Position numbers and translations under genes: made by a program
Notes under the pieces: generated by a model
Databases searched by the model: none
What the model saw: only the letters and a program-made list of their open reading frames with translations
Told to the model about the DNA's origin: nothing
Shown: positions 1,763 to 24,000 of the stretch, piece by piece
How the letters are laid out: each line of letters opens with the position of its first letter
How positions within the stretch are numbered: position 1 is the stretch's first letter
Assembly: GCA_048941015.1 (NCBI GenBank)
Contig: JBHLNZ010000021.1
Location: forward strand, 8,263 to 32,262
Direction of reading: 5' to 3'
Origin: Promethearchaeota archaeon
GTDB taxonomy: Archaea; Asgardarchaeota; Lokiarchaeia; Sigyniarchaeales; SOKP01
Length of the DNA: 24,000 bases

Positions 1763-1868
1763 AAATCAAATTATTTTAAACAATCAGTTAAAAATGAAAG
1801 TTCAAAATCTAAAATAAAATGAATAGAGAATAAAAAAAAAATTAAAAAAAGGAGGTATTGAAAAGCAG

Positions 1869-4991: not shown

Positions 4992-5064
4992 GCCTCTGTT
5001 GCTTAGCAGGTAGAGCGTTGCCTTGGTAAGGCAAAGGTCGGGGGTTCAAATCCCCCCAGGGGCT
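4992..5064 (+). tRNA. tRNA-Thr(GGU): tRNA-Thr (anticodon GGU), intron-less, no encoded CCA
   Basis: Hand-folded cloverleaf. Acceptor GCCTCTG/CAGGGGC, D arm GCTT-AGCAGGTA-GAGC, anticodon arm TTGCC-TTGGTAA-GGCAA, variable AGGTC, T arm GGGGG-TTCAAAT-CCCCC, discriminator T. Confidence 0.9.
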
Positions 5065-5089: not shown

Positions 5090-5222
5090 GCCGGTGTGGC
5101 TTAGTTGGTTATAAAGTCTATTTGAAATTAGACTTAATAGGCACCAGACTCATAATCCATCTGAAAAATTGGGTCAGAAAGATGAACTCTGGAGGTCGTG
5201 GGCTCATATCCCACCACCGGCA
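5090..5222 (+). tRNA. tRNA-Met/Ile2(CAU): tRNA with CAU anticodon (elongator Met or Ile2) interrupted by two introns
   Basis: Acceptor GCCGGTG/CACCGGC. The D stem GCTT...AAG|C is split by a ~25-nt insert (about 5117-5141) containing the hairpin GTCTA-N8-TAGAC. The anticodon arm CCAGA-CTCATAA-TCTGG is split by a ~32-nt insert (about 5156-5187) at or next to the canonical 37/38 site. T arm GTGGG-CTCATAT-CCCAC, discriminator A. Removing 57 nt gives a 76-nt cloverleaf. A G1-C72 pair and no GGG/CCC in the anticodon stem argue against an initiator. Confidence 0.65.
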
Positions 5223-10072: not shown

Positions 10073-11638
10073 ATGGAAAGATTTATTTCAGAAAGGATTT
10101 CATCTCAGGAAATGGCTATCTTAGATAATAATTCTGAGTGGTTAGGAATACCAAAAAGTCATTTAATGGAGTGCGCAGGATACTCTTTTGCTACTGAAAT
10201 TTATAAAAAGTTCAATTTAGACTCTTATTCAAAAGTTATTATATTTTGTGGAACAGGTAATAATGGAGGGGATGGTTTCGTAGTTGCTCGTCATTTAAAT
10301 TCATATGGAATAAAATCGATAGTGGTTCTAGTTGGTTCTCCTGAAAAAATTAGAACGGATGAAGCAAGACTAAATTGGGAGATTATTTCAGAAAGTCTAG
10401 AAAGTTTAATAGAAATTATAATAATTCATGATTCAACAGATTTTGAAGGGCTTTATAATTTAATCGAGTTGGATAAAAATATTAAATTATTCGTTGATGG
10501 ATTATTGGGAACAGGAATAAAAGGAATGATTAGGGAACCAATTGCCTCAGCGATAGAGTTTATTAATAAAGTTAAGGAAAAAGGTAATATAAAGGTTATC
10601 TCAATCGATATTCCTTCTGGTTTGGATCCAAATACAGGAAATGTTTCAGATAAAGCAATTAAAGCTGACTTAGTAATAACCTTTCATAAATCTAAATATG
10701 GTTTACATCCGAAAACAGAATATGTTAAAGAAATTATTATAAAATCCATAGGTATTCCTCAAGAAGCAAGTTTATTTGTAGGAAAAGGAGATTTATTGCC
10801 AACTTTAAAAGAAAGAAAAGTAGACAATCATAAAGGTCAATTTGGTAGAGTTTTAGTAATAGGAGGATCAAAAAATTACTCTGGAGCACCCGCATATTCT
10901 TCTCTTACTGGGATTCATTTTGGATGTGATTTAGTTATAACATATGTTCCTGAAGTAGTGGGAGATGTTATACGAAGTTATTCTCCAAATATGATCGTTA
11001 GAACAAGTCCAGGAGATTTTTTAGGTACATCTGCATTTGAAGAACTTAAAGAATTAATAGATTGGTCGAATACAATAGTAATAGGTCCCGGGTTAGGAAC
11101 TGAAAAAAAGACTGAAGAATTAATGGTAATGATCTTAGAAAAACTCAAGAAGGATAAAAAATCTTTCGTTTTAGATGCGGATGCCTTAAAATTAGTCAAG
11201 AATCATTTAGAATTAATTAAAAATCAAAATGTAATTTTGACTCCACATGAGGGAGAATTTAAAATAATGATGGATATAGCCTTGCCACCTTTTATTAATA
11301 TAGAGGAAAGGGGGAATATTATTTTCGAGACAGCAAAAAAATATGATCTTACTCTTCTTGTAAAAGGACCTTATGATTACATAAGTAATGGCAAAAAGTT
11401 AAAGATCAATCGAACTGGATGCCCTGAGATGGCTATTGGAGGAACTGGAGATGTTTTAGCAGGATTGTGTGGCTGTTTTTTAACAATTGAAAATGGGAGT
11501 TTTGAATCCGCTTGTTCTGCTGCTTTTCTAAATGGTTATATTGGAGAATTTTGTAAGAATAATATCGGTAATCGTTTTACCACAATGGATTTAATAGCGA
11601 ACATCAATGAAAGTATTTTGAACATTAAAAAAATGTAA
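10073..11638 (+). CDS. nnr: Bifunctional NAD(P)H-hydrate repair enzyme (N-terminal epimerase YjeF_N + C-terminal ADP-dependent dehydratase)
   Basis: The N-terminal half has GTGNNGGDGFVVARHL. The C-terminal half has HKGQFGRVLVIGGSKNYSGAPAYS and GGTGDVLAG. The length of 521 aa is typical of the fused form. Confidence 0.9.
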   Translation: MERFISERISSQEMAILDNNSEWLGIPKSHLMECAGYSFATEIYKKFNLDSYSKVIIFCGTGNNGGDGFVVARHLNSYGIKSIVVLVGSPEKIRTDEARLNWEIISESLESLIEIIIIHDSTDFEGLYNLIELDKNIKLFVDGLLGTGIKGMIREPIASAIEFINKVKEKGNIKVISIDIPSGLDPNTGNVSDKAIKADLVITFHKSKYGLHPKTEYVKEIIIKSIGIPQEASLFVGKGDLLPTLKERKVDNHKGQFGRVLVIGGSKNYSGAPAYSSLTGIHFGCDLVITYVPEVVGDVIRSYSPNMIVRTSPGDFLGTSAFEELKELIDWSNTIVIGPGLGTEKKTEELMVMILEKLKKDKKSFVLDADALKLVKNHLELIKNQNVILTPHEGEFKIMMDIALPPFINIEERGNIIFETAKKYDLTLLVKGPYDYISNGKKLKINRTGCPEMAIGGTGDVLAGLCGCFLTIENGSFESACSAAFLNGYIGEFCKNNIGNRFTTMDLIANINESILNIKKM

Positions 11639-11779: not shown

Positions 11780-12643
11780 TTGAGAATATATATGGGTACT
11801 CAAGTTTTTCTTATAAATCCAGATGGAACCACAACTGAAATAAAATCTGAAGGGTCAATTAAAGATGTTTTAAAAACTGAAGATTGCTATGTTCTAGTTT
11901 CTGATGATATTAGGAAGGTATATCTATGGAAAGGATTGGAGAGCAATGTGAGATCAAAGTTTATTGGTGCCAAAAGGAGCCAAGAAATACGTGGACAAGT
12001 CGGTATGCATTATGCAGTTGTTCCCCAGGATGAAGGGGATGAAGAAGCTGAATTTTTAAAATTAATAGGCGGGAAGACAGAAGGAGGTATAGCTAAAGAA
12101 ATAAAAGCAGAACAAGCGTCTGTTGCTAAACCTGCCCCATCAGTTCACCCACTGAGGGAAAAGGATACTTTTGGAGCTCCAAAGCCAGCCCAAGGTATGA
12201 ATATTGCTGGAAGTAGAGATCGTATTGCTCAAAATACAGGCCCCTTATATAGAGGACAAGAATCTATGTCTATGCTCATGGAGGACGAGGTTAAAATAAA
12301 TTTTGAACAAATAATGCAAAAATTGGAAGAAATTAAAATGCCTGATGGATTTGAAAGGGAATTAATAATTATTGGAAATCATGCTTATTCAGTTGTAGAG
12401 AGAGTACAGACCTTCTTAGGAGAGAAACAAGTAACTAAAGAAATATCGAAGGTAGGAGCTGTCCCTGAGGGAATCTTTTTTGCTGAAGATTATTCTCCAA
12501 GAATTTTATCAGAAAATGGTAAAATTCTAGCTATAGAATTCTTAAAACGGACAACTGGACCAAAAGATACTACAGTTGAATTCAAATCTAAAAAAGAAAT
12601 TTTAAAAGATCAAATAAAAACTCAGCTTGAAGGTAAAAAATAG
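11780..12643 (+). CDS. Gelsolin/cofilin-fold domain protein with an uncharacterised C-terminal domain (1DGelX-like architecture); probable start at ATG 11792
   Basis: The N-terminal ~100 aa follow the gelsolin-repeat pattern: DCYVLVSDD-IRKVYLWKGLESNVRSKFIGAKRSQEIRGQ...VVPQDEGDEEAEFLKLIGG (compare gelsolin DxYIL / IYxWxG / xxE...A / EG-E-x-F). A ~60-aa linker of disordered appearance and a ~125-aa domain without a recognised motif follow. Confidence 0.7.
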   Translation: MRIYMGTQVFLINPDGTTTEIKSEGSIKDVLKTEDCYVLVSDDIRKVYLWKGLESNVRSKFIGAKRSQEIRGQVGMHYAVVPQDEGDEEAEFLKLIGGKTEGGIAKEIKAEQASVAKPAPSVHPLREKDTFGAPKPAQGMNIAGSRDRIAQNTGPLYRGQESMSMLMEDEVKINFEQIMQKLEEIKMPDGFERELIIIGNHAYSVVERVQTFLGEKQVTKEISKVGAVPEGIFFAEDYSPRILSENGKILAIEFLKRTTGPKDTTVEFKSKKEILKDQIKTQLEGKK

Positions 12644-12860
12644 TTCCATATTTTAATCCTTCTTTTATTTATTAAGTCAATACATGTTATTAATTCATAT
12701 AGATACATATGAACCACAAATCTTTTCATTATAAAAATAGCTAAACTTTAAAACACCTTAACCTATTAGAGGTATAAATATAAGTTTTTATATCTAAAAC
12801 TTTTATTTAATATTAATTGTAAAAAAAAATGATATTAATTAATAGCTAAGGACGCGTATT

Positions 12861-13250
12861 ATGAGCGATTTAACTCCAGAAGAAGCACATTCATTATCAA
12901 AATTTCTTGGGAATATTACTGAACATACTGAACTGGAGGCTCTTGCCTTAGTGACACGTGATGGTTTACGTCTTGCTTTTTCTTGCATTCCAGATTATGA
13001 AGTCGATCCGGATCTATTTTCAAGTCTAAGTGCTGTAGTAATGCAAAGCGGACAGGATGCTATTGATTCTCTGGGTTATACTCATTTATTGGAAGTAGTT
13101 TTAAGAGGCGCAGATGCTTTTATTATTTTGAGTGCTGCTGGGAGATTCTTCTTAATGGGTGCAAGTAGAAAAATTGAAGATTTAGGTAAAATTGTAACGG
13201 TTTTTAGATATTATGCTGGAGAAATCGGGAAACGCTACCCTCTAACATAA
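12861..13250 (+). CDS. Roadblock/LC7 (MglB-like) domain protein
   Basis: A 129-aa single domain. LEALALVTRDGLRLA, an acidic loop, LLEVVLRGADAFIILSAAGRFFLMG and LGKIV follow the Roadblock/LC7 longin-like pattern. Confidence 0.75.
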   Translation: MSDLTPEEAHSLSKFLGNITEHTELEALALVTRDGLRLAFSCIPDYEVDPDLFSSLSAVVMQSGQDAIDSLGYTHLLEVVLRGADAFIILSAAGRFFLMGASRKIEDLGKIVTVFRYYAGEIGKRYPLT

Positions 13251-13364
13251 GATTTGAATTAAATGCTAATCAATCTGAATTAAGTGATTTTGAAGATATA
13301 ATAATGCTAAAAAATAAATAATACAAATTTTTAAATTGATAATTAAAAAATATAGTGACGTGAC

Positions 13365-15557
13365 ATGAGCGAAATCAAAATTTTTGTTGATGTAAATGAA
13401 GGTACCTCAAATAAAGTTGTTATTTGCCAAGAGAACGCAAACAAGTTAGGACTTTCCGAAGGTGCTTCAGTTGAAGTTGAAAATCCTGATAATAATAAAA
13501 AAGCCACTGCAACTATAGAAATTTCGAATATGGTTTTAGATTTTGCGGGACAGGTTTCAAAGAATGTTGTTGACGAATTGGAATTTGATGGTATTGAATT
13601 AATTATTCGTCCTGTTAGTAGTACTGGTCTAGCAGCTCCTAAATTACAGATACCGAAAGTTCCAACACCCAGACCGATTCCTACAACCCAACCAGGAATT
13701 TCCCAACAATCATCATTAACTCCATTACCCACACCTCCGCCTCAACCTATGCCAACTAGGCCAACACCTCAACCTAAACCGGCACCTACACCACAAGCAA
13801 CACCTATACCTGCTCATCAACCAGTTCCAAAACCTATTCCTCAACCTATGCCTATGCCTACTCCAACACCTCCACCACAGTATACTCCAGCACCTCCAGC
13901 ACCTACACCAGCACCTATCCCTCGAGTTGCTCCAATACCACCACCCCAACCAACGTATGATCAAGCTCCTACACAAGACTATAGTGTATCTTCTGTTCCT
14001 GCAGAACCATACCCTAATAAAATAGATGTCTATATGTTGCAAACTCAAAAGAATGGTATTGTTCTTAAACCCGTTGTTGATGATAATCTTGAAGGAGGAA
14101 GAGTACAAGTGAGTTCTTCCGTTATTCAACAATTAGGACTTGCTCCAGGATTACTAATTGCCTGGGAAGATCCTTTAACTCGTTCTATAGGCTCTGCTAG
14201 AATAGATCAAGCAATGGTTAATCCAGGTGAGATAAGAATGAGTAGAGATACAAAAGAAGATACAAATATCCAAGCTCAACAAATTGTAATTTATTCGACT
14301 GAACCTCCAATTCATAAAGCATCAGAATTAATGCTTGAAGTTCAATCTCAACCAAATTTAATGGGTTATTGTTTAGTTGGGCCTCGTACAATGTATACAC
14401 TATCTATTAAACAAGATGATGTTCTTGCATTTGAGGATGAACTTACAGGGGCTATAGGCGCTGGTAAAGTGGAAATTTCGGATGCCGTTCCACCTAATAG
14501 TATTGTTATCGATAGTGAGATATTAGAAGCATCTGGTATAGGAAGCTTTGAAGTTAAAGTTTCTAAAAATCTCCGTCCTATTATTCCATTACAAAATATT
14601 GCTCTTGGTATTTCTCCAATTTCAGGAGAAAATATGTGGGAAATCATAAGTACTGCTCGACAAAATGTGGATTCGTTAAAAGGATGGTTATCAAATTATA
14701 TCATCTTTAAAGGAATCAAGTTGAGATGGAATGCGGTAAACATAGCATGTTCAATAATCAGAACGGTTCCAGACTTGACTGGGGATGTCTTTGCCCAAAT
14801 TACACCAAATACCGCAATAAATTTAACGCCCACCGGATTAATACCCTTTAATGCAATTCTTATTATTGATATTAGTAGGAGCATGATGGCAAGAGATGTT
14901 TATGTGACTAATATTGCTCCTGCAATAGAAGGAATAAAAGCAGCTATGGAATCTCGAGAAATTCAAGAATTTCTAAAACATTTCAAAGCTGGAATCAATA
15001 TCCCAAGAAGAATTTCAGCAGCTTTTGCAGCGGTTTTGTTTTTAAGTGAAAAAGTTGGGAGAGGTTTTGGTGAAAAGGTCTCAATTATAAGATTTGCAGA
15101 TGAAGCACAAGTATTACCTTTTGGTGGTGGTTTCTATATGGATTCTGCTAGTGGAAAGAAAGGAATTCTTGAAGATGCAGCACGTATGATCGTTGATCGA
15201 ATAGGAAATGCTTATGGACAAGCTACCAATATGGGTCAAGCTATGATTAAAGCTCATCAAGTTTTAGCTGAGTTTGAAAAGATGAGTCCGGATCAGCCAA
15301 CAATGATCGTACTCTTAACGGATGGGATCCCTACGGATGGAGATGATTTCTTCAAATCAGTTAAAGGTTTTGCTGAGAATCCGAATGTGGTCATTTATAT
15401 AGTTGGACTAGGAAATCCTGATGATGAATTAATGATTAGAGCAGCATCGTTATGTGGTGGAGAATACTTTAAACCGGAGGATGCAGGTGAACTATTGATA
15501 TGGTATTCTAAACGAGCAAGAGATCTTACAGTTAAGTTGAAGGCGCATAAAGGTTAA
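13365..15557 (+). CDS. Multidomain protein: Cdc48-N-like barrel, Pro-rich tract, two more Cdc48-N-like barrels (+ beta-clam), C-terminal vWA domain with intact MIDAS
   Basis: vWA lies at aa ~496-715: ILIIDISRSMM (DxSxS), QATNMG (Thr) and IVLLTDGIPTDG (Asp). There are three segments of the pattern xxVxVxxxxxxxLGLxxGxxVxx...G.A.I (aa 5-85, 233-312, 323-402). They are followed by LKGWLSNYIIFKGIKLRW...IIRTVPDLTGDVFAQITPNTAINL, which resembles the Cdc48 domain-2 beta-clam. Confidence 0.8.
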   Translation: MSEIKIFVDVNEGTSNKVVICQENANKLGLSEGASVEVENPDNNKKATATIEISNMVLDFAGQVSKNVVDELEFDGIELIIRPVSSTGLAAPKLQIPKVPTPRPIPTTQPGISQQSSLTPLPTPPPQPMPTRPTPQPKPAPTPQATPIPAHQPVPKPIPQPMPMPTPTPPPQYTPAPPAPTPAPIPRVAPIPPPQPTYDQAPTQDYSVSSVPAEPYPNKIDVYMLQTQKNGIVLKPVVDDNLEGGRVQVSSSVIQQLGLAPGLLIAWEDPLTRSIGSARIDQAMVNPGEIRMSRDTKEDTNIQAQQIVIYSTEPPIHKASELMLEVQSQPNLMGYCLVGPRTMYTLSIKQDDVLAFEDELTGAIGAGKVEISDAVPPNSIVIDSEILEASGIGSFEVKVSKNLRPIIPLQNIALGISPISGENMWEIISTARQNVDSLKGWLSNYIIFKGIKLRWNAVNIACSIIRTVPDLTGDVFAQITPNTAINLTPTGLIPFNAILIIDISRSMMARDVYVTNIAPAIEGIKAAMESREIQEFLKHFKAGINIPRRISAAFAAVLFLSEKVGRGFGEKVSIIRFADEAQVLPFGGGFYMDSASGKKGILEDAARMIVDRIGNAYGQATNMGQAMIKAHQVLAEFEKMSPDQPTMIVLLTDGIPTDGDDFFKSVKGFAENPNVVIYIVGLGNPDDELMIRAASLCGGEYFKPEDAGELLIWYSKRARDLTVKLKAHKG
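13635..14015 (+). other. Proline-rich low-complexity tract (aa ~91-217) inside the vWA protein
   Basis: The stretch reads PKVPTPRPIPTTQP...PTPPPQPMPTRPTPQPKPAPTPQATPIPAHQPVPKPIPQPMPMPTPTPPPQYTPAPPAPTPAPIPRVAPIPPPQPTY. It forms a local GC-rich island (CCA/CCT codons) that generates the spurious Trp/Arg-rich antisense ORFs 13343-13732 and 13725-14132. Confidence 0.85.
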
Positions 15558-15561
15558 AGCG

Positions 15562-15569
15562 TTTTTTTT
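15562..15569 (+). terminator. Oligo-T tract (T8), candidate terminator after the vWA gene
   Basis: The T8 run begins 5 nt after the stop codon and closes the gelsolin-Roadblock-vWA gene run. Confidence 0.35.
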
Positions 15570-16248: not shown

Positions 16249-16650
16249 ATGAAGGAAGTAAAAGTACTATCGATAGACGATCGTGGCAGGATCGTAATTC
16301 CTCAAATAATAAGAAAATCTCTCGGTCTAACCACAAACTCTCAATTAATAATGGTAAGCGATTCAGAAACAAAAGAAATAAAAATCACTCCTATAGGATT
16401 AGGTGGAGAGAAAATTCCAATTAAATTAAGAATTACTATGAAAGATATACCGGGAGCTCTAGCTAAACTTGCGACAACTTTCGGAGAGCATGGTCTAAGT
16501 ATGATGTATAGTGAAGCTGTAATAGTAGAGAAGGATAAGAAAGCTGTATGGACTGTTATTTCTGAAAGCCCCAGCAATTTAAATGAATTAAAAGAAACTT
16601 TAAAAGAGAAGGGAGAAGCAATAGAAGTTGAAGTTTTACCTTTAGAATAG
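16249..16650 (+). CDS. AbrB/SpoVT-type DNA-binding domain fused to an ACT domain (putative ligand-responsive regulator)
   Basis: The N-terminus SIDDRGRIVIPQIIRKSLGL is the swapped-hairpin AbrB/SpoVT signature. The C-terminus LRITMKDIPGALAKLATTFGEHGLSM...AVWTVISE follows the ACT pattern. Confidence 0.65.
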   Translation: MKEVKVLSIDDRGRIVIPQIIRKSLGLTTNSQLIMVSDSETKEIKITPIGLGGEKIPIKLRITMKDIPGALAKLATTFGEHGLSMMYSEAVIVEKDKKAVWTVISESPSNLNELKETLKEKGEAIEVEVLPLE

Positions 16651-16682
16651 TATAAAAAAATAATAAAAACAACCGCAATTTA

Positions 16683-17411
16683 ATGGCAAAAAAAAAAAAG
16701 AAGGATAAAGAAAAAGATCCTATTTCAGAATATTCATTAGACAGTACATTAAAATCCTCGAAAAAAACCAAAACAGATTTACAGGGATTATTAAGAGGAT
16801 TTTCTGAAGAGAAAGGATTTGGAGCACCGAAAGAAGAAGAAAGAATAAAGCCCCAATTATCATATGAGAGTAAGAAACAAATTGCTGAAGATTATATAAT
16901 GGAAGATATTCCTCTCAGTGAGAGAGAGAAGATAAAAGAAGAAAAAATTAAATTAGAGTCCGTAGAAGAAAAAGTAGTAGAGCTTAAGAAAGATGAAGAA
17001 TCTTCTTCCAAACCAATAAGTACTAAAGAAAAACCTTCTTTTTCGAAGAAAGATGATATCTATTTAAAGTTATCAAATTTTTTTGAAGAACTTTTTGTGG
17101 GTTATAATGAACGTTATGACAGATGGGAGAACTCAGTTTCAGCGTTACTTGCAATTTTAAGAAAAATGAGAAAAATAACTAAAAAAAATACTGAAGATTT
17201 AGTCTCAACAATCAATAATCAATATGAAAAAATACAAAAGAACCTTGAAGAATTTAAAATTAAGCGAGATGAGATAGAAAAAATCTCAGATGTAGATATC
17301 GAAATAATGTCAAGTGAATTTAAAAAAGTTTTGGGGTTATTAGAACTTCAAGTCAAAGAATACCAATTAAAGAAATTAACTGATGAGTATATTCATCAAT
17401 ATAAACTATAA
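16683..17411 (+). CDS. Lys/Glu-rich protein with a C-terminal helical/coiled-coil domain, hypothetical
   Basis: It starts MAKKKKKDKEKD, encoded by an A12 run. Residues ~1-125 are low-complexity K/E/S-rich. Residues ~125-242 look helical with heptad-like spacing. It lies 55 nt upstream of the actin-related gene on the same strand. Confidence 0.5.
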   Translation: MAKKKKKDKEKDPISEYSLDSTLKSSKKTKTDLQGLLRGFSEEKGFGAPKEEERIKPQLSYESKKQIAEDYIMEDIPLSEREKIKEEKIKLESVEEKVVELKKDEESSSKPISTKEKPSFSKKDDIYLKLSNFFEELFVGYNERYDRWENSVSALLAILRKMRKITKKNTEDLVSTINNQYEKIQKNLEEFKIKRDEIEKISDVDIEIMSSEFKKVLGLLELQVKEYQLKKLTDEYIHQYKL

Positions 17412-17466
17412 GCTTCTAGTAATAGGATAAGTTCGGTTTTATAAACAAGTTAATAGAAGTATTATT

Positions 17467-18621
17467 ATGAGTTTCCCCAATAAAGATCAGTTACGTCCTT
17501 TAATTCTTAATATCGGAAGTAATACTTTCAAAATGGGTTGGGCAGGAGATGATTTTCCCGATATTATCGCTCCAAGCATATATGTTGATGTTTCTGATTA
17601 CCTATATACTTCAGATGTAATTGACGGCTTAGAAGAGATTTATATTAATGAGGAAACTCAAAACCATTTGGTTGGACATCAAGCATTAAAATATCAAGAT
17701 ATCTTAAAAATTCACGAATTTAAAAAAGAAAAGAATTATAATTTGCTTACTAAATTTTTTTATTATTATTATAACCAATTAAAAATATCTTTAGAATTAC
17801 AATATAGGCAGCCACTAATTATACTTTTACCTTTTTTTAGTTCAGAATTAGAAAAAACTAAATTACAAGAAATTTTTTTCGAATCCTGTAATTTTCCAGC
17901 TATTTTATTTTTAGATGAAGCTCAAGCTATATTATCTACATTAGACAAGTCTAGTGGAGTGATTATAAATATTGGAGAATCAAATACGTATATCTCTACA
18001 ATATTTCATGGTTTTACGAATATAATGGCCCGAGATCTTTTTCCTGTAGCTGGGAAGGAATTAACAAATTATCTATTAAATTTAATTTTAGCAAGGAAAA
18101 GTTTAGTAAAAAATGTACATGTTGATAAAACTATAGCAAAAGAAGTTAAAGAAAAGTTATCTTTATGTCTTATAGATCCAGATACTGAAAAAAAAAGAGT
18201 TAAAGAAGGTTTAACTAAATATGATCGTACTATAGATCTACCAGATGGTTCTAGTTTAAAAATAAATTTAGAACGTTTTTTATTGGCAGAACCCCTATTT
18301 AATCCAAAACTTATACATATCGATTATATTGGATTAGCGGAAGCAGTATCTAAAGTGGTAAAATCCTGGGAGAGAGAAAACTGGGAAGATTTAGTGTCTA
18401 ATGTTATTTTAGCAGGTGGAGGAAGTTTAATATCTGGTCTTGATCGAAGATTAGAATTGGAATTAAAAAATTTCTTTTCAGAAAGATTAAAGCCAAAAAT
18501 AAAAGTAGTTGCTGCTTCAGGTCGAGAGAATATGGGTTGGATTGGAGCATCAATTCTTTATTCGAAGGGGCAATTACAAAAAGGTTGGGTTAAAAATCCT
18601 AATTTAGAAAATACAATTTAG
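17467..18621 (+). CDS. Actin-related protein (divergent member of the actin/Arp clade)
   Basis: The protein is colinear with eukaryotic actin throughout. [16 protein letters not shown] matches [42 protein letters not shown] matches [46 protein letters not shown] matches [21 protein letters not shown], and [10 protein letters not shown] matches VWIGGSILAS. Confidence 0.9.
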   Translation: [384 protein letters not shown]

Positions 18622-18684
18622 TAAGAAGAAAAATGAGAGAATTATTTAAATAATTATTAAAAAATGAATAGATAATGCTTTAAA

Positions 18685-21273
18685 ATGACTGTTGATTTAG
18701 AGAGAAAAAAAGATTTTTTAGAAAATTTTCAAAAATATGTTATTCAAGGTAGGAAGTTATTACAATCTGCTAATCATAGATGGGCAGATCGATTATTCAC
18801 AGAATTATATTTCGAAATTGAAAAGAATGAATGGCTCGGTATACAAAGAAAGCATCAATTGATAATGATTATCTCTAACTCGTGGTGGATGTATATAAAT
18901 TCGTTAACTAAAGGAATCAATAGTCAAGCAGAAATGGATATTATTCGTTATATTGATGCGTATAAAAGATTTTTTTCTTTCTTATCGAGATTAGATGATT
19001 TCTATTTATTTAATAATTTTGCTACTAATCTTTTGAGATCATTTATTGGTTTTGAAAATTTATCTCAAAAAGGAATCACTAAATTCATTAATTCTTTTTG
19101 TGCTAAAGTTAGTGAAAGAGGAGAGTATCTTAAATTAATTGAATTGCAACTATTGTTGATGTTTTTAAGGAAATCTGTAATCCCTCAAGAGTTTTTTCAT
19201 TTTAGTATGGAGACTCTTGGAAGGACACTTTTTAAATTAGAACCGGCAAAGAGAGCTCTATTTTTATATATATTTTTGGAAAATGTTAATATTAATTATC
19301 AGCTTATTGATGACTCAGATGAATTCATCAAAATTATGAGTAAAATTTTAGTAAATCGAATTCCTAGTTATTTAAAAACTGAATTTAGCAATTTAGGTAG
19401 AATTACTATAAATCAGAGAAATTTTAATTTCATTTTAAATGATTTAGAAGATCTAATCCAATATTTAAATTATATTGGAGAAAATGTCTGGATTGCTGTT
19501 ATTATAAAAAACTTATTTTATAAAATTGAGCGATTTCAGTCGTTCGGAGATGCTGTGACATACATAAGAAAATTTATAGATTATGCAATAGCTAGAAATA
19601 GGTTTGAAATTGCCTTTGAGATATATGATTTTTTAGAAGATATTTTCTTGTCTAAAACTGATTTAGGATACGATAATATTTTAATTGAGTTATGGGTTGA
19701 AGCATGCAAGAAATTCGTAGAAATGAAAGAAAAAAAATATTTATTACAATCTCTAGAAAAATTAAATACTCATTTAAAAACGCCACAGACAAATGCACAA
19801 ATATTTCATTATTTTTATACCTGTAATTTATTATGGAAGTTTAAATCTATGTTCTTTTCTTTGGAACAAAGAGATTTTTGGCGAATGATGTTTTATCGAG
19901 CTCTTTTTGAAGAAAAAGACTATGATTTAGCAAGAAAAATATGTCCATATCTTGATAAGAATATTGGGTCTCAAATAGTTGATCCATCTATATTATTCCG
20001 GGAAAGCCAGGAGTTGCAAAAAGAGATATATTCCTTTAAAAATGAGGAGAATTTTTCTGAATTAGAGACTATGGCTTTTATTATAAAACAAATTATATTT
20101 CGAATAAATTCAGATGGGTTAATTTCATTTAGGATGATTTCTCAAGATAATGCTATGTTAGAAGGTAAAATTTCTGATGAGTTTTGGAATGATGCTCAAA
20201 TAAATGAAATATATTACGATCTTTTTAACCTTAATGAAGTAAAAAAGTTTGATTTTACATTGAAAGAATTTGGAAAATTACTATATATCTTTTTACCAAA
20301 AAAGATAAGGTATTTTTTCAAACATTTTGAGATTAAAGCACTTGATTTTGTACCGGAAATATATTTTATATTGGATCAGATGGCTGTGCCATTTGAAATG
20401 ATTTATGATAATAATTTTTTTTTGTTAAAATATTCTATAGGGTATATAATTGGGGAACCTCCTTTAGGTGGAGTCACTTTTGGATATGAAGACTCCTTAG
20501 AAGAACAAGCGGCTGTGAAAAAAAATAAATTCAATGTGCTAATTATTGAATGCACTAATTCCAAAAATCCTTTAAAATGGAATGAAGAGTCAAAATCAAA
20601 AGAAATTGTTTTTCCTTTCACGGCAGGCATTAATGAATTAAACTATATTATTGAATTTTTTAATAATAGGGAAGAAATAGATCAATTCACCATACTCTCT
20701 GGAGATTACTCTACTAAGGAAAACATTTTATCCAAAATTTTAGAAAGTAATAATCATATAATTCATTTTGTTGGTAATATATTTTATTCAAAATGGAATC
20801 CACAAGATAGCTTTATGATTACAAATGATAATGAAATATTAACATTTAGGAGCATAAATAAGGCAATTGAACAAAATCAATATATAAATGAAACACTTCT
20901 GTTTTTCAATTCTCAGGTGTTCGATGTAAAAGGAGAAAAATTACAGAATGTCTTGAGACCATTTGGAGAAATTGCCCAAAATTTTAATTATAATAAAATA
21001 ACAGGAATAATTTCACGAAATTATCCTATTTTCGATGATGAAACTAAAGAGATTAGTGCTAACTTTTATATACACTTATTCAAGAATTATAGTCAAGGAA
21101 TTGCTCTTTTGAAAGCAAGACAAGAATGCATGGCTAAAAAGATGACTAAACTTGTCGAGGAAAAATTTCAAACTCTAAGTGAAGAAGAAGGAATTATTAA
21201 CATTGATTTAGAGAGCTCTTTAGCAATTTCAAGTTACATACTCTTTGGAAAACCTTGGAAAACTATCATTTGA
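18685..21273 (+). CDS. Large helical-repeat (TPR-like) protein with a C-terminal CHAT (caspase-like, clan CD) domain lacking the canonical His/Cys dyad
   Basis: The C-terminal ~340 aa follow the CHAT profile. LGKLLYIFLPKKIRYFF...ALDFVPEIYFILDQMAVPFEMIY and NHIIHFVGNIFYS match the position of the xHxaxHG motif. NETLLFFNSQVFD matches the position of vvLsaCxs. YPIFDDETKEISANFYIHLFKNYSQGIALLKARQ matches WpvdDxxaxxlmxxFYxxLxxGxsxaeALrxAq. The N-terminal ~520 aa are all-helical and repeat-like. Confidence 0.7.
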   Translation: MTVDLERKKDFLENFQKYVIQGRKLLQSANHRWADRLFTELYFEIEKNEWLGIQRKHQLIMIISNSWWMYINSLTKGINSQAEMDIIRYIDAYKRFFSFLSRLDDFYLFNNFATNLLRSFIGFENLSQKGITKFINSFCAKVSERGEYLKLIELQLLLMFLRKSVIPQEFFHFSMETLGRTLFKLEPAKRALFLYIFLENVNINYQLIDDSDEFIKIMSKILVNRIPSYLKTEFSNLGRITINQRNFNFILNDLEDLIQYLNYIGENVWIAVIIKNLFYKIERFQSFGDAVTYIRKFIDYAIARNRFEIAFEIYDFLEDIFLSKTDLGYDNILIELWVEACKKFVEMKEKKYLLQSLEKLNTHLKTPQTNAQIFHYFYTCNLLWKFKSMFFSLEQRDFWRMMFYRALFEEKDYDLARKICPYLDKNIGSQIVDPSILFRESQELQKEIYSFKNEENFSELETMAFIIKQIIFRINSDGLISFRMISQDNAMLEGKISDEFWNDAQINEIYYDLFNLNEVKKFDFTLKEFGKLLYIFLPKKIRYFFKHFEIKALDFVPEIYFILDQMAVPFEMIYDNNFFLLKYSIGYIIGEPPLGGVTFGYEDSLEEQAAVKKNKFNVLIIECTNSKNPLKWNEESKSKEIVFPFTAGINELNYIIEFFNNREEIDQFTILSGDYSTKENILSKILESNNHIIHFVGNIFYSKWNPQDSFMITNDNEILTFRSINKAIEQNQYINETLLFFNSQVFDVKGEKLQNVLRPFGEIAQNFNYNKITGIISRNYPIFDDETKEISANFYIHLFKNYSQGIALLKARQECMAKKMTKLVEEKFQTLSEEEGIINIDLESSLAISSYILFGKPWKTII

Positions 21274-21980: not shown

Positions 21981-22118
21981 ATGGTGGAAAATTCTGTAAA
22001 AAAAGAAAAACAAAAGAAGAAGAATAAGATAGAAGAAGATGAGAAAAATACAAATTCTGATCATGATTTTGATTGGGATTGGATCTTTGATAAAGAATGG
22101 TTGAGAACAAAAAAGTAA
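21981..22118 (+). CDS. Possible 45-aa ORF (Lys/Glu-rich N-terminus, acidic-aromatic DHDFDWDWIFDKEW C-terminus) overlapping the methyltransferase start
   Basis: The ORF runs from ATG 21981 to TAA 22116-22118 and is below the ORF-track size cut-off. Its 3' end overlaps the next ORF (ATG 22097) by 22 nt. There is no family assignment, and it could be non-coding. Confidence 0.25.
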   Translation: MVENSVKKEKQKKKNKIEEDEKNTNSDHDFDWDWIFDKEWLRTKK

Positions 22119-24000
22119 TAAATTCGGAAAGAATTACAGAAATTTTTGGCCTAAAGTCTGAAATCTATAATGAAATAATGAAATCTTTTGAAAAAGAACT
22201 CGTTAATGAAAAAGATCTATTTCTAAAGAAATATAATAATTGGAATTTGTTATTTAAAAATATTTTTGGAAGCCAAATTGAAAGAACGCTATTTCTAAAA
22301 CAAACCTATCTTTCTCAGATATTGAAAATTTTAATATTATTTAAATTAAAAAATGATACAGATGTGAATCAATTTTGTGATGCCTATAAATTCTATAACT
22401 TAGAAGAGTATGGTTTAATTGAGTTAAAGTACTTTAATTGGATTGAAATAAATGAACAAATTATAAAAAAGATCTATAATATTTTAAACAAATCGGATTT
22501 CTCTAACGAAGATTTATTTCATGAAGTATACCAAGATATCTTTTCTTCCAAAATACGTCATAAAGCTGGAGAGTTTTATACGATTCCTCTTTTGGTCAAT
22601 AAAATGGTCAATGATGTTTATAAGTTTGGAATGAGAGTATTAGATCCTTCCTGTGGTTCAGGAAGCTTCTTAATACAAATAATAATAAGTATTTTAAAAT
22701 CTCAAATGCCATTTAAGGACAAAATTGATGCGATTAATAATGTTTATGGTTTCGATGTTAATCCTTTAGCAATATTAACAGCGAAATCAAATATTCTTTT
22801 ATTTTTTTTAAGTCAATTTGATCTAAAAAGTAATTCAATCCCTAAAATCAATATATTTTTACTTGATTCTCTTTTTCCTGAAGATTTTGAAAAAAATTCT
22901 TCAATAAATCTGAAAAAATTATATTCGAGTTTTGATCTCGCAATAGGGAACCCTCCTTGGTTAACTTATAAAGATATTAATAATTCGAATTATCAAAAAA
23001 AAATTAGATTATTAGCTGAATCTTTAAATATTAAACCTCGTAGTCAATATATCACCCATATTGAATTAGCATCAATTTTTTTTTATGCTATCCCTTTAAA
23101 ATTTTTAAAAATGGGGGGAGAAATATTATTCGTCATAACGAAAAGTGTATTGAATGGGGATCATTGCTTTAAATTCAGGAGTTTTTCTATATTTGAAAAC
23201 TTAGAAATTTGGGATTTCCCCAAGAATTATTTTTTTAATGTCGATCATATTTGCTTGAAAGCAAAGTTTGTTGGAGCTGGAAAGAGACAGTCAATTTCAT
23301 CCAAATACCCGATTAACTCTAAAATTTTTAATGATAAACTCGAATTACAAAATACTATCAAATATACAAGTATAAAATGTGAAGAGGATGGAGCAAAAAT
23401 TATTCTTCCCGAATATGAAGTTAAAAGATTAAATGAACTTAGAAAAAGTCCTTATAAGGAAAAGTTTCTCCAAGGAGCTACTTTAGTTCCAAGAACTCTC
23501 GTTTTCTTCGAAATAAATGATAAAAATAATCAATATCTAAAAATTTCTTCTGATAGTGATATTCTTTTACGTGCTAAAAAAAAATGGAAGTTCACTTTTA
23601 AAAACGTTGAGATTGAAAATAGATTTAGATTTAAATCCTTTTTAAATATGGATTTAATTCCTTTTCTTATAAAAAAATATCGAAATGTTTTTTTACCTAT
23701 TAATTCTGAATTTGAGTTTAAAATTGAGTTTCTTAAAAAAAATCCAAAAGCATTTATATTCTATAATAAATTGAATGATTTTTATAAAAGAAACAAAAAA
23801 AGCACAAGTAATATCAATACATTATTTGAAAATTTGAACTATTGGAATAAACTTACAAAACAATTTAAGAATAAGAAATATATTGTTGTATATAATGCTA
23901 GTGGTTCAAATTTAAAAGCTGCTGTAATAAATAATGAAAAAAAAAATATTGTTATTGACTCAGAAAATTATTATCTCTCAACAGATTCTTTAAATGAAGC
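22097..24000 (+). CDS. N6-adenine DNA methyltransferase, Eco57I/TaqI-like gamma class (possibly type IIG/IIL or BREX PglX-like); 3' partial, runs off the window
   Basis: This ORF was hand-translated and is not in the supplied track. It is uninterrupted from ATG 22097 (in-frame TAA at 22091) to the window end, more than 634 codons. It has motif X/AdoMet region AGEFYTIPLLVNKMV, motif I VLDPSCGSGSFL and motif IV FDLAIGNPPW. The N-terminal ~150 aa is a helical domain, and the long C-terminal region is consistent with a target-recognition domain. Confidence 0.85.
   Translation, partial: MVENKKVINSERITEIFGLKSEIYNEIMKSFEKELVNEKDLFLKKYNNWNLLFKNIFGSQIERTLFLKQTYLSQILKILILFKLKNDTDVNQFCDAYKFYNLEEYGLIELKYFNWIEINEQIIKKIYNILNKSDFSNEDLFHEVYQDIFSSKIRHKAGEFYTIPLLVNKMVNDVYKFGMRVLDPSCGSGSFLIQIIISILKSQMPFKDKIDAINNVYGFDVNPLAILTAKSNILLFFLSQFDLKSNSIPKINIFLLDSLFPEDFEKNSSINLKKLYSSFDLAIGNPPWLTYKDINNSNYQKKIRLLAESLNIKPRSQYITHIELASIFFYAIPLKFLKMGGEILFVITKSVLNGDHCFKFRSFSIFENLEIWDFPKNYFFNVDHICLKAKFVGAGKRQSISSKYPINSKIFNDKLELQNTIKYTSIKCEEDGAKIILPEYEVKRLNELRKSPYKEKFLQGATLVPRTLVFFEINDKNNQYLKISSDSDILLRAKKKWKFTFKNVEIENRFRFKSFLNMDLIPFLIKKYRNVFLPINSEFEFKIEFLKKNPKAFIFYNKLNDFYKRNKKSTSNINTLFENLNYWNKLTKQFKNKKYIVVYNASGSNLKAAVINNEKKNIVIDSENYYLSTDSLNE

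Follow-up and report, generated by a model that had tools for sequence, protein, structure and literature searches.

A gelsolin-X and Roadblock gene pair shared by Asgard archaea, with a neighbouring vWA gene in Lokiarchaeia, as a candidate module for actin control

Among described proteins, the closest to the first gene considered here is the Thor 1DGelX protein, which Akil et al. (2020, PNAS; PMC7444086) found to sever and nucleate actin in vitro in a Ca-independent manner and to bind rabbit actin with a Kd of 7.7 uM. In human cells, a GFP-1DGelX fusion was enriched at the ER and nuclear-envelope regions, and its association with filaments was weak (PMC7444086). The same paper states that 1DGelX-like architectures occur in Lokiarchaeota; neither its main text nor the preprint version mentions an adjacent Roadblock gene.

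A second point of comparison is provided by the MglA-MglB system of bacteria and the Rag-Ragulator/LAMTOR system of eukaryotes, where, as may be the case at the present locus, a Roadblock/LC7 protein is encoded with a functional partner. MglA also connects to MreB, an actin homologue.

The locus lies within a 24,000-nt window (the whole stretch of DNA analysed, from contig JBHLNZ010000021.1 of a Promethearchaeota archaeon), in which the listing of open reading frames (ORFs) gives three consecutive ones on the plus strand (11780/11792-12643, 12861-13250, and 13365-15557). The initial annotation had described these as a gelsolin/Roadblock/vWA trio and interpreted them as a cytoskeleton-regulation cluster; the ORFs and their domain matches confirm the trio, and the interpretation is partly supported overall. 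The features, all on the plus strand, are as follows:

10073-11638, plus strand: Nnr/YjeF (NAD(P)HX epimerase/dehydratase) gene (Pfam YjeF_N 8e-41, Carb_kinase 2.5e-49)
11792-12643, plus strand: GelX, a 283-aa 1DGelX-type gelsolin (gelsolin domain, disordered linker, domain X)
12644-12860, plus strand: GelX-Robl spacer, 217 nt, AT-rich
12861-13250, plus strand: Robl, the GelX-associated Roadblock/LC7 protein, 129 aa (Pfam Robl_LC7)
13251-13364, plus strand: Robl-vWA spacer, 114 nt, with a TATA-like element
13365-15557, plus strand: vWA protein, 730 aa, cytoplasmic (Pfam VWA, MIDAS residues)
15562-15569, plus strand: T8 run at the end of the trio, probably an archaeal oligo-T terminator that closes it
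16249-21273, plus strand: downstream block of four tightly packed genes (Pfam; PDB actin matches), namely the next four
16249-16650, plus strand: putative AbrB/MazE-ACT regulator (Pfam)
16683-17411, plus strand: coiled-coil protein, 242 aa
17467-18621, plus strand: actin-related protein (Pfam Actin 1.6e-50; PDB actin matches around 1e-41)
18685-21273, plus strand: 862-aa protein with a weak CHAT match

Both intergenic gaps have the lengths given in the initial annotation, and the T8 run lies where it had been reported, 5 nt past the TAA stop of the vWA gene (15555-15557). A domain search of the window's ORFs found no small GTPase gene. The actin-family gene, 1.9 kb downstream of the trio, had been overlooked.

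Read from the ATG at 11792, the first gene yields a 283-aa product with 100% identity to the NCBI protein ACFFC9_07580, so this ATG is the likely start; the ORF that had been annotated from the TTG at 11780 is real, but that codon is probably not the start. The Pfam Gelsolin score of GelX (19.7 bits) falls just below the gathering cut-off of 21. Nevertheless, the gelsolin domain can be regarded as confirmed on sequence and model grounds, since phmmer matches GelX to solved Asgard gelsolins (7whg, 1.7e-8; 7c2f, 4.7e-7) and the N-terminal domain of its AlphaFold model aligns structurally with Thor ProGel 7c2f_B (TM 0.93, rmsd 1.6 A), which bears out the original identification of a gelsolin-X protein. 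Foldseek matches the model to gelsolin, adseverin, villin, and fragmin domains with a probability of 1.0, and in a 91-sequence alignment W46-K47-G48 and F57 are invariant. The protein is divided as follows:

11792-12076, plus strand: gelsolin domain, aa 1-95 (AlphaFold pLDDT about 90)
12077-12295, plus strand: disordered linker, aa 96-168, with the Loki-specific motif NTGPLYxG (pLDDT below 50)
12296-12640, plus strand: domain X, aa 169-283 (sheet pLDDT 75-91)

Architecture and the HMM family (P0437), which also contains Thor-labelled proteins, place GelX in the family of Thor 1DGelX; the two are similar in total size, and each has a single gelsolin/cofilin-type domain, followed by a linker and, at the C-terminus, an 'unknown domain X'. 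For domain X, the paper predicted a coiled coil (I-TASSER), whereas the deep-alignment AlphaFold model shows a five-stranded antiparallel sheet between an initial helix and a C-terminal one. No homologue of this domain was detected in Pfam or the PDB, and homology to Roadblock was undetectable by hhalign (probability 0.8%). With eukaryotic gelsolin, villin, and CapG, GelX has in common the gelsolin fold and the actin-binding helix; it differs from them in that it has a single gelsolin domain rather than three to six, ends in a domain X unrelated to them, and has a Roadblock gene of its own as neighbour. By analogy with 1DGelX, it probably also lacks the Ca regulation of the eukaryotic proteins. 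The prediction for GelX is that it attaches to actin by its N-terminal domain and severs, caps, or nucleates filaments, as Thor 1DGelX does in vitro.

The second gene had been assigned to Roadblock/LC7, and this assignment stands: Robl scores 27.5 bits with Pfam Robl_LC7 (gathering cut-off 23) and matches the Robl in PDB 7f8m at 8.6e-4. The third gene is indeed a vWA protein with a Pro-rich tract (Pfam VWA, 36.1 bits against a cut-off of 23.8), and its intact MIDAS residues are invariant among orthologues. Its regions are:

13365-13619, plus strand: small beta-barrel repeat N1, aa 1-85
13620-14003, plus strand: Pro-rich spacer, aa 86-213
14004-14570, plus strand: beta-barrel repeats N2 and N3, aa 214-402
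14571-14849, plus strand: conserved middle region, aa 403-495
14850-15554, plus strand: vWA domain, aa 496-730, MIDAS D502/S504/S506, T621, D653

Inspected by eye, the sequence of this protein shows neither a signal peptide nor a membrane segment, and the adhesion role proposed for its vWA domain is therefore unlikely. In this respect, and in its complete DxSxS...T...D MIDAS site, it resembles the cytoplasmic MIDAS vWA scaffolds (MoxR-associated and BatA-type). On the other hand, it has no AAA+ MoxR partner nearby, and its N-terminal part, with three small beta-barrel repeats (weak CDC48_N-like matches) and a 128-aa Pro-rich spacer, is unusual; with the BatA model it scores 17 bits, far below the cut-off of 380.

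Conservation of the arrangement was assessed in the informative orthologous loci of 80 species-level Lokiarchaeial genomes. In 72/72 loci Robl is found downstream of GelX at no more than 1.3 kb, in 69/69 vWA is no more than 2.5 kb away from Robl, and in 49/52 the actin-related-protein block lies downstream of vWA; the sole gene insertion seen within the trio is between Robl and vWA (locus L073). Since the trio is kept together in every informative locus, it is not a chance adjacency, and the possibility, raised at the outset, that the three genes are never co-localised in related genomes does not hold. However, adjacency alone is no proof of a functional link, since Nnr, a metabolite-repair enzyme that is probably unrelated in function to GelX, is almost as syntenic with GelX as Robl is in Loki, in Odin, and in one Hod-labelled lineage; it precedes GelX in almost every Loki locus and also in L085, L086, and L122.

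In Lokiarchaeia, the three genes are probably separate transcription units, to judge from the sequence of the spacers between them, which are long (roughly 170-220 nt; median 169 nt between GelX and Robl in orthologous loci), AT-rich, and provided with TATA-like elements, and from the T5+ runs found after GelX in 69% of Loki loci and after Robl in 52%. In the window, the element TTTAAATT (13330-13337) precedes the vWA start codon by 28-35 nt, and across the orthologous loci the -40 to -31 bin is where TATA-like matches are most frequent (30/70). Within 60 nt past the stop, T6+ runs occur in 59% of orthologous loci for vWA, 36% for GelX, and 31% for Robl, as against 11% for the control. The window's own GelX-Robl spacer lacks any run of five or more Ts after the GelX stop, and no Rfam RNA was found there.

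Outside Lokiarchaeia, the GelX-Robl pair is present in Odin LCB4 and Baldr (gap of 2 nt in each), in a Hod-labelled locus, and in L091 and L125, and in 18 further metagenome loci from Thor- and Baldr-type clades the ORF adjoining GelX scores 146-179 bits with an HMM of the Robl partner. The Robl proteins encoded directly 3' of GelX in the Odin, Baldr, and Thor-type clades are 40-46% identical to Loki Robl and, judged by sequence, are its orthologues. Several GelX clades have no Robl beside GelX, namely the Jord-type and Heimdall ones and Loki paralogues, one of which is in the same MAG. Of all gene pairs, GelX and Robl show the highest correlation between their pairwise-distance matrices (r = 0.80; partial r = 0.70 controlling for Nnr; 0.62 for Nnr-GelX), and mean p-distances are 0.21-0.27 for GelX, Robl, and vWA versus 0.34 for the neighbouring housekeeping Nnr. 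As to vWA, Jord-type loci have a 496-aa homologue, 36% identical over 425 aa (E 2e-71), at a distance of about 2.5 kb from GelX. The three genes, among which a functional link had initially been proposed, are unequally linked: GelX-Robl is the ancient core and the deeply conserved unit, whereas vWA is mainly a Loki addition.

Ras/Arf-like GTPase genes take Robl's place in other GelX clades. In one paralogue clade (L106, L114), a Ras-family GTPase gene begins about 9 nt after GelX and is followed by a second GTPase-like gene, and in L120 a GTPase match begins about 35 nt after GelX. In Odin, a GTPase gene accompanies Robl (GTPase-Nnr-GelX-Robl), and the order GTPase-Nnr-GelX(-Robl) is shared by Odin, L086, and L122. 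Two singleton fusion proteins, gelsolin-wHTH-Robl and Ras-gelsolin, sit on contigs of 1.4-2.1 kb and may be assembly chimeras. The GTPase genes near GelX recall MglA-MglB and Rag-Ragulator and lend support to the idea, already present in the initial annotation, of Roadblock as a GTPase regulatory platform; the difference is that the constant partner of Robl is a gelsolin and not a GTPase.

Other explanations of the locus concern the vWA protein. According to one, its Pro-rich tract recruits profilin-actin in the manner of formins, VASP, or WASP and works with GelX in filament turnover. The tract, annotated as polyproline-type with about 125 aa, is real (128 aa, 37% Pro, rich in PxP/PT/PQ) but is not polyproline, its longest Pro run being 3. 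It has the high Pro content and long low-complexity character of the formin FH1, VASP, and WASP regions, and all 20 Loki orthologues examined keep it (112-192 aa, 31-40% Pro, one to four PPP(P) motifs each); moreover, the Heimdall LC3 profilin and one Thor profilin bind polyproline weakly (PMC8410842). Loki profilin-1, profilin-2, and Odin profilin, however, are reported not to bind VASP polyproline (PMC8410842), Pro runs among the Loki orthologues reach at most 3-4 without conserved motif positions, tract length and sequence vary, the Jord-type homologue lacks the tract, and Pfam finds no FH2, WH2, or EVH domain (EVH2 included). The P/T/Q/A/S composition with few charged residues is that of a typical extended flexible spacer, so that profilin recruitment, as originally proposed, is improbable. 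According to another explanation, vWA, GelX, and a GTPase regulator are the unfused parts of a Sec23/24-like GTPase-binding trafficking coat. In Sec23, the vWA-like trunk is combined with a beta-barrel and with a gelsolin-like domain that contributes to Sar1 GAP activity; it is exactly the gelsolin domain that Asgard Sec23-like proteins are reported to be without (PMC11914678), and the ER localisation of GFP-1DGelX and the linkage of GelX-family genes to Arf/Ras-like GTPases would fit. Yet the domain order is unlike that of Sec23, the vWA protein has no Pfam matches to Sec23_trunk, the zinc finger, or the helical domain and, on inspection, no CxxC motifs, a profile search of PDB sequences returned no Sec23/24, and Thor 1DGelX is a potent direct severer of actin (PMC7444086), which makes a coat precursor highly improbable.

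A further explanation, rather unlikely but to be taken more seriously, is inherited synteny without coupling: GelX would act on actin, Robl with an unlinked GTPase, and vWA in another complex, the ancestral order simply never having been broken. The long spacers, the TATA-like elements upstream of Robl and vWA, and the T5+ runs after each gene in many loci favour it, as does the comparable synteny of the unrelated Nnr; Tran et al. remark that in MK-D1 the genes for Roadblock proteins and GTPases are as a rule not organised in operons, and Liu et al. place most of the eukaryotic signature proteins of Asgard archaea outside conserved neighbourhoods. Against it, the GelX-Robl pair recurs in at least five sequence clades from several Asgard classes with flanking genes that differ each time, its spacing outside Loki is often an operon-like 2-35 nt, its distance correlation exceeds that of either gene with Nnr, and GTPase genes fill the Robl position in another clade.

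The best reading, in which confidence is evenly balanced, is that an actin-severing GelX and a Roadblock partner linked to a GTPase switch constitute a two-gene module conserved across Asgard archaea; it builds on the domain identities, the gelsolin fold, the MIDAS site, the conserved gene order, and the alternation of Robl with GTPase genes. From gene context, GelX and Robl might interact physically, Robl most likely being a dimeric regulatory or localising partner that would act on domain X or the linker and, as in MglA-MglB or Rag-Ragulator, might subject severing to a small Ras/Arf-like GTPase switch. The adjacency of the pair in at least five Asgard lineages suggests a form of control over the actin skeleton, previously unreported, in the relatives of eukaryotes. 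In Lokiarchaeia, this GelX-Robl module would have gained the vWA protein, perhaps a cytoplasmic MIDAS scaffold in which three small beta-barrels are joined by a Pro-rich spacer that is long and flexible, and the downstream operon, whose four genes code for a putative regulator, for one coiled-coil and one actin-related protein, and for a large protein; together, they may form a cytoskeleton-regulation neighbourhood. Median gaps within the downstream block are 47, 50, and 18 nt in Loki orthologous loci.

The three consecutive plus-strand genes, together with the T8 run that closes them, are present as the initial annotation claimed, both in the ORF calls and in the sequence. They encode GelX (a gelsolin domain, a linker and a domain X), Robl (a 129-aa Roadblock/LC7 protein) and a 730-aa vWA protein; the G+C content of the window is about 30%. 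The features of this region are:

11780/11792-12643, plus strand: GelX ORF
12077-12295 (aa 96-168 of GelX): linker with the short, strongly conserved motifs HPLREKDxFG, GMNIAGS and NTGPLYxG
12861-13250, plus strand: Robl ORF, after a spacer of 217 nt
13330-13337: TATA-like element TTTAAATT, upstream of the vWA gene
13365-15557, plus strand: vWA ORF, after a spacer of 114 nt
15562-15569: T8 run, directly 3' of the vWA stop codon
15688-16098, plus strand: glyoxalase/VOC-family gene, between the vWA gene and the block below
16249-21273, plus strand: four-gene block encoding an AbrB/MazE-ACT putative regulator, a 242-aa coiled-coil protein, an actin-family protein and an 862-aa protein

The most likely start codon of GelX is the ATG at 11792: translation from it yields 283 aa, as in the orthologues and in the deposited protein, NCBI ACFFC9_07580 of a 'Promethearchaeota' (Lokiarchaeial) MAG, with which the window GelX shares 100% identity.

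GelX scores 19.7 bits with the Gelsolin Pfam model (PF00626), for which the gathering cut-off is 21. Its assignment to the gelsolins is based on two independent results: phmmer matches to solved Asgard gelsolins (Loki 2DGel 7whg, 1.7e-8; Thor ProGel 7c2f, 4.7e-7) and the superposition of an AlphaFold model, in which residues 1-95 (pLDDT around 90) adopt a gelsolin fold with a central sheet, a long actin-binding helix and a short helix. This model was built on a 91-sequence alignment, an earlier one from 14 close orthologues (pLDDT 47) having been discarded. The top Foldseek match of the gelsolin domain is Thor ProGel 7c2f_B (TM 0.93, rmsd 1.6 Å), and there are 114 PDB matches at E≤1e-3, every one of those listed being a gelsolin domain. 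W46-K47-G48, the WxG core of the 'DWG' motif of Akil et al., and F57 are invariant across 91 members of the GelX family. At E≤1e-3 this family counts 374 representatives (50% clustering), and identity among its full-length members falls to about 23%. The MAGs of its named members are labelled Odin, Baldr, Jord, Thor, Hod, Heimdall, Hel and Loki; one such member is a Thor-labelled protein (P0437). The architecture of GelX is the same as that of 1DGelX, the Thorarchaeota protein of Akil et al., which bound rabbit actin with a Kd of 7.7 µM (PMC7444086). It was a nucleator at low ratios, an inhibitor of polymerisation at 1:1 and a robust filament-severing protein, and none of these activities depended on Ca2+.

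Alignments and the model divide GelX into the gelsolin domain (aa 1-95), the linker (aa 96-168), predicted by AlphaFold to be disordered (pLDDT below 50), and domain X (aa 169-283). A GP[LIV][YWF]xG motif in the linker is a candidate docking motif; of the Loki-clade GelX proteins, 21 of 22 have it, and all 61 members from seven other clades lack it. Domain X, which is kept in family members down to about 23% overall identity and is also found alone and in other architectures, is predicted to be an alpha/beta domain and not a coiled coil, a revision of the earlier picture; the model has a helix (171-180), five antiparallel strands (187-194, 197-208, 211-220, 234-241 and 244-253; pLDDT 75-91) and a C-terminal helix (267-280). 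A Roadblock-like nature and a second gelsolin-like domain were both rejected at the sequence level, hhalign giving probabilities of 0.8% against the profile of the Roadblock partners encoded beside GelX and 0.1% against the gelsolin-domain profile. A per-member Pfam scan of domain X gave nothing significant, and its profile had zero matches in the PDB at E≤10. The one recurring hint, below threshold, is of the encapsulin family-4 A-domain: PF08967 matches 2 of 29 members, at best with E 0.014, and NF041190 scores 21 bits for a cut-off of 90.

The Roadblock and vWA calls of the initial annotation hold at the Pfam cut-offs, and its gelsolin call holds through phmmer and AlphaFold; its 'polyproline-type' tract is not polyproline (see below). 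Robl scores 27.5 bits with Robl_LC7 (PF03259; cut-off 23) over aa 17-99 and matches Robl_LC7 proteins in the PDB (7f8m, 8.6e-4; 9jue, 6.4e-3), and the vWA protein scores 36.1 bits with PF00092 (cut-off 23.8) and 31.3 bits with PF13519 (VWA_2; cut-off 27).

In a synteny scan with each GTDB species represented by one genome, a relative turned up in 121 species, and the best 80 loci, all Lokiarchaeial and at 64-90% identity, were analysed. Among the informative loci, 72/72 have Robl downstream of GelX at a distance of at most 1.3 kb and 69/69 have the vWA gene within 2.5 kb of Robl, with median spacers of 169 nt (GelX-Robl) and 190 nt (Robl-vWA). Gene-order breaks fall around the trio, not within it: there are insertions between GelX and its upstream neighbour, the Nnr/YjeF gene (Nnr), in 5/76 loci, and insertions of more than 600 nt separate the vWA gene from the downstream block in 17/58. 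The trio itself is interrupted by genes in a single locus, L073, where they stand between Robl and the vWA gene. MAGs of a single submission batch (JBHL...) with labels such as Thor-, Odin-, Heimdall-, Hod- or Hermodarchaeota encode GelX proteins 74-98% identical to that of the window and share its Lokiarchaeial synteny; to judge from these sequences, their taxon labels look unreliable.

The block follows the trio in 49 of 52 informative Lokiarchaeial loci, with median internal spacers of 47, 50 and 18 nt; given these medians, packing is loose in the trio and operon-like in the actin-related block. The actin-family gene, 1.9 kb downstream of the trio and overlooked in the initial annotation, encodes a divergent protein (Pfam Actin 1.6e-50; about 1e-41 to PDB actins) that is not Lokiactin-like in conservation, and the 862-aa protein has a weak CHAT match only. 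The glyoxalase gene at the junction seems to have been inserted recently, at a breakpoint that recurs among the loci, as it is carried only by the window and its closest relative, L005.

Each trio gene probably has its own promoter in Lokiarchaeia, where the spacers are AT-rich; TATA-like matches and oligo-T runs were counted across orthologous loci. Upstream of the vWA ATG, TATA-like matches are concentrated at a distance of 31-40 nt (30 of 70 loci), and the share of loci with a run of T6 or more is 59% after the vWA gene, 36% after GelX and 31% after Robl (control 11%). In the window itself, GelX and Robl are followed by T4 runs only, so that read-through to the T8 after the vWA gene is possible. 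Rfam detected no RNA in the intergenic spacers. A scan with bacterial sigma-70 and hairpin-terminator models, which gave fewer promoter-like sites than shuffled sequences, is uninformative for an archaeon.

The layout of the vWA protein, drawn from alignments and weak profile matches, is as follows:

aa 1-85: small beta-barrel repeat N1
aa 86-213: Pro-rich spacer
aa 214-402: repeats N2 and N3
aa 403-495: middle region, very conserved
aa 496-730: vWA domain

The repeats N1-N3 have the common motif (A/W)(F/W)ED-LT---G; N2 aligns with N3 (hhalign E 3.5e-4), and a shorter, 496-aa vWA homologue has a single barrel with which both N1 and N2 can be aligned. The MIDAS residues (DxSxS...T...D) D502, S504, S506, T621 and D653 do not vary among 20 orthologues. 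An adhesion role for this protein is unlikely: inspection of the translation revealed neither a signal peptide nor a membrane anchor and no hydrophobic stretch of any length, and the N-terminus, MSEIKIFVDVNEGTSNK, is hydrophilic, so the protein may be read as cytoplasmic and an assembly or scaffold role is therefore more likely than adhesion. Two antisense ORFs, at 13343-13732 (minus strand, 129 aa) and 13725-14132 (minus strand, 135 aa; rich in Trp, Arg and Cys), overlap the Pro-rich coding region and look like shadow ORFs of the CCN-rich sense strand, not genes.

Co-localisation of the three genes, the synteny check suggested in the initial annotation, holds throughout the informative Lokiarchaeial loci; beyond Lokiarchaeia the trio dissolves, while the GelX-Robl pair alone persists:

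L085, Odinarchaeum yellowstonii LCB4: GTPase-Nnr-GelX-Robl, with 2 nt between GelX and Robl
L086, Hod-labelled MAG: GTPases-Nnr-GelX-Robl
L087, Baldr: Rpb6-GelX-Robl, with a gap of 2 nt
L091, Thor-type clade: SerRS-GelX-Robl-HD
L125, a further clade (G6): 341-aa unknown (opposite strand)-GelX-Robl-prenyltransferase, downstream of an ABC-transporter operon

Moreover, in 18 metagenome loci of Thor- and Baldr-type clades, the adjoining ORF scores 146-179 bits against the HMM of the Robl partners and mostly begins, by the ORF calls, 2-25 nt after GelX. The partners are 40-46% identical to the window Robl, with GelX at 27-35% in the same comparisons, and by these sequences they are clearly orthologues of it. 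Spacings of 2-35 nt in the Odin, Baldr and Thor-type clades imply co-transcription. No adjoining Robl was found in a Jord-type clade, in Heimdall or in Loki paralogues, one of which belongs to the same MAG as the window; in Heimdall, a homologue of the Robl partner lies 6 kb from GelX, and the 93-aa neighbour of GelX is not Robl: it ends in GG and looks ubiquitin-like. The linkage of the vWA gene to GelX is not purely Lokiarchaeial: in three Jord-type loci (L089, L092 and L093) the 496-aa vWA homologue lies on the other strand about 2.5 kb from GelX, and it is 36% identical to the vWA protein over 425 aa (E 2e-71); it comprises a single barrel, a middle region and a vWA domain but no Pro-rich tract. 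A published overview describes gelsolin across Asgard phyla 'except in Odin LCB_4' (PMC8813620). Contrary to this exception, OdinLCB4_005275, the GelX gene of L085 (CP091871.1, 946297-947157), encodes a clear GelX-family protein (gelsolin-domain HMM 1e-38, domain X HMM 2e-45), with the Roadblock gene 2 nt downstream.

Roadblock/LC7 proteins are partners of small GTPases, as MglB is of MglA and Ragulator is of Rag. The Asgard Roadblock structures have been reviewed (PMC10933270). The 24-kb window contains no GTPase ORF and so lacks a GTPase-Roadblock pairing of the MglA/MglB or Rag/Ragulator type. Related loci do have GTPases near GelX: an Arf/Ras-like GTPase lies directly upstream of Nnr-GelX in Odin (L085), L086 and L122, and in one clade of GelX paralogues an operon-like arrangement runs from GelX to a Ras-family GTPase and an Arf-like GTPase-like gene:

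L106, 3956-6246
L114, 3986-6409

Here some 9 nt separate GelX from the start of the Ras-family GTPase (Pfam Ras 6e-48 to 6e-50), which stands in Robl's place. L106 and L115 carry another Ras GTPase around 2 kb upstream, and L120 has a GTPase match about 35 nt after GelX, where the contig then ends. The region upstream in L106 also carries Trm56 and a SLOG-family gene. Two fusion proteins may be Rosetta-stone fusions: P0258 (383 aa) joins a gelsolin domain, 65% identical to that of the window, to a wHTH and a Roadblock/LC7 domain, and P0273 (429 aa) joins a Ras-family GTPase to a gelsolin domain (58% identical). They are weak leads, since each is a singleton on a contig of 1.4 or 2.1 kb and may be a chimeric assembly. 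Overall, GelX-family genes are repeatedly linked to either half of a GTPase/Roadblock switch. By analogy, the GTPases of the related loci support the idea that the window genes may work like a GTPase-Roadblock switch, not that they are members of one.

The best-supported interpretation is that of a conserved actin-regulatory module, the core of which is GelX and a dedicated Roadblock partner, and to which Lokiarchaeia would have added the vWA scaffold and the actin-related protein operon. Robl would bind GelX and couple it to a small GTPase, as gene context and knowledge of the family suggest. A bolder proposal, which we consider rather unlikely, is that Asgard small-GTPase/Roadblock switches might be wired directly to an actin-severing gelsolin, with GelX as effector, Robl as regulatory platform and neighbouring Ras/Arf-like GTPases as input; in Lokiarchaeia, the MIDAS vWA protein would then further scaffold the module, with a genomic link to the operon. 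The main rival to the module is that the synteny was simply inherited, without functional coupling, and the strongest argument in its favour is that Nnr, an unrelated gene, is nearly as syntenic with GelX. Within Lokiarchaeia, the distance matrices of GelX and Robl correlate (r = 0.80; partial r = 0.70 given Nnr) more strongly than those of any pair involving Nnr; this is suggestive of co-evolution, as a correlation and not a formal test.

Two further readings concern the vWA protein and are much less likely. In one, put forward in the initial annotation, the Pro-rich tract recruits profilin. The tract of the window protein is indeed 37% Pro, and among 20 orthologues it spans 112-192 aa with 31-40% Pro. 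Its longest Pro run is 3, the maximum runs in the orthologues are 3-4, there is little positional conservation among them, and neither the window protein nor the other 19 has some five or more consecutive Pro at conserved positions; no FH2, WH2 or EVH2 domain was matched by Pfam at E≤0.1. Furthermore, no binding to VASP polyproline was reported for Odin profilin or for the Loki profilins 1 and 2 (PMC8410842). As the tract is variable, its Pro runs short and the profilins reported as non-binding, it is read as a flexible, extended spacer and not as a profilin-recruiting element. In the other reading, the combination of vWA and gelsolin domains marks a Sec23/24 precursor. The domains of a Sec23/Sec24-like coat protein (trunk, zinc finger, beta-sandwich and helical) were sought, but there was no Sec23-family Pfam match, and Sec23/24 was absent from a profile search of PDB sequences; this reading is without sequence support.

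Gelsolins, profilins and Lokiactin demonstrate a regulated actin cytoskeleton in Asgard archaea. The GelX-Roadblock pair and the GTPase genes that take or share the Robl position in other clades provide specific candidate partners for switching archaeal actin severing, so that the question of how it is switched, which is relevant to the Asgard cytoskeleton field, is now open to direct experiment. If the direct wiring proposed above were true, it would count as a forerunner, in prokaryotes, of GTPase control over actin dynamics, following the logic of the Rho family, and would explain the regulation of the calcium-insensitive 1DGelX. At the window locus, most of the published Asgard 'eukaryotic signature' toolkit sits in a conserved neighbourhood. 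This is unusual, since in the asCOG analysis of Liu et al. most Asgard signature proteins lie outside such neighbourhoods, only the ESCRT and LAMTOR1-Rab-DENN operons being listed. The trio proteins individually belong to known families; what sets the locus apart would be a GTPase/Roadblock-type switch module with gelsolin as the linked component. No description of a gelsolin-Roadblock or gelsolin-GTPase neighbourhood was found in the literature searchable here (on 1DGelX, Asgard Roadblock/GTPase proteins, asCOG neighbourhoods, a structural-modelling survey and Arf, with keyword searches), the coverage of which is incomplete, so an earlier description is possible.

Elsewhere in the window, an NfeD/YqiJ-like membrane protein gene with an SPFH/Band-7 (flotillin-like) gene after it lies upstream (887-3044, plus strand). 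A tRNA-Thr(GGT) gene (4992-5064, plus strand) is followed, 26 nt on, by a second Rfam tRNA match (5090-5222, plus strand; 43.8 bits), which, being 133 nt long and without an ARAGORN call, probably contains an intron. At the 3' end, a long ORF (22095-24000, plus strand) with the NPPW motif of N6-adenine methyltransferases, resembling type IIG restriction-modification enzymes, runs off the window.
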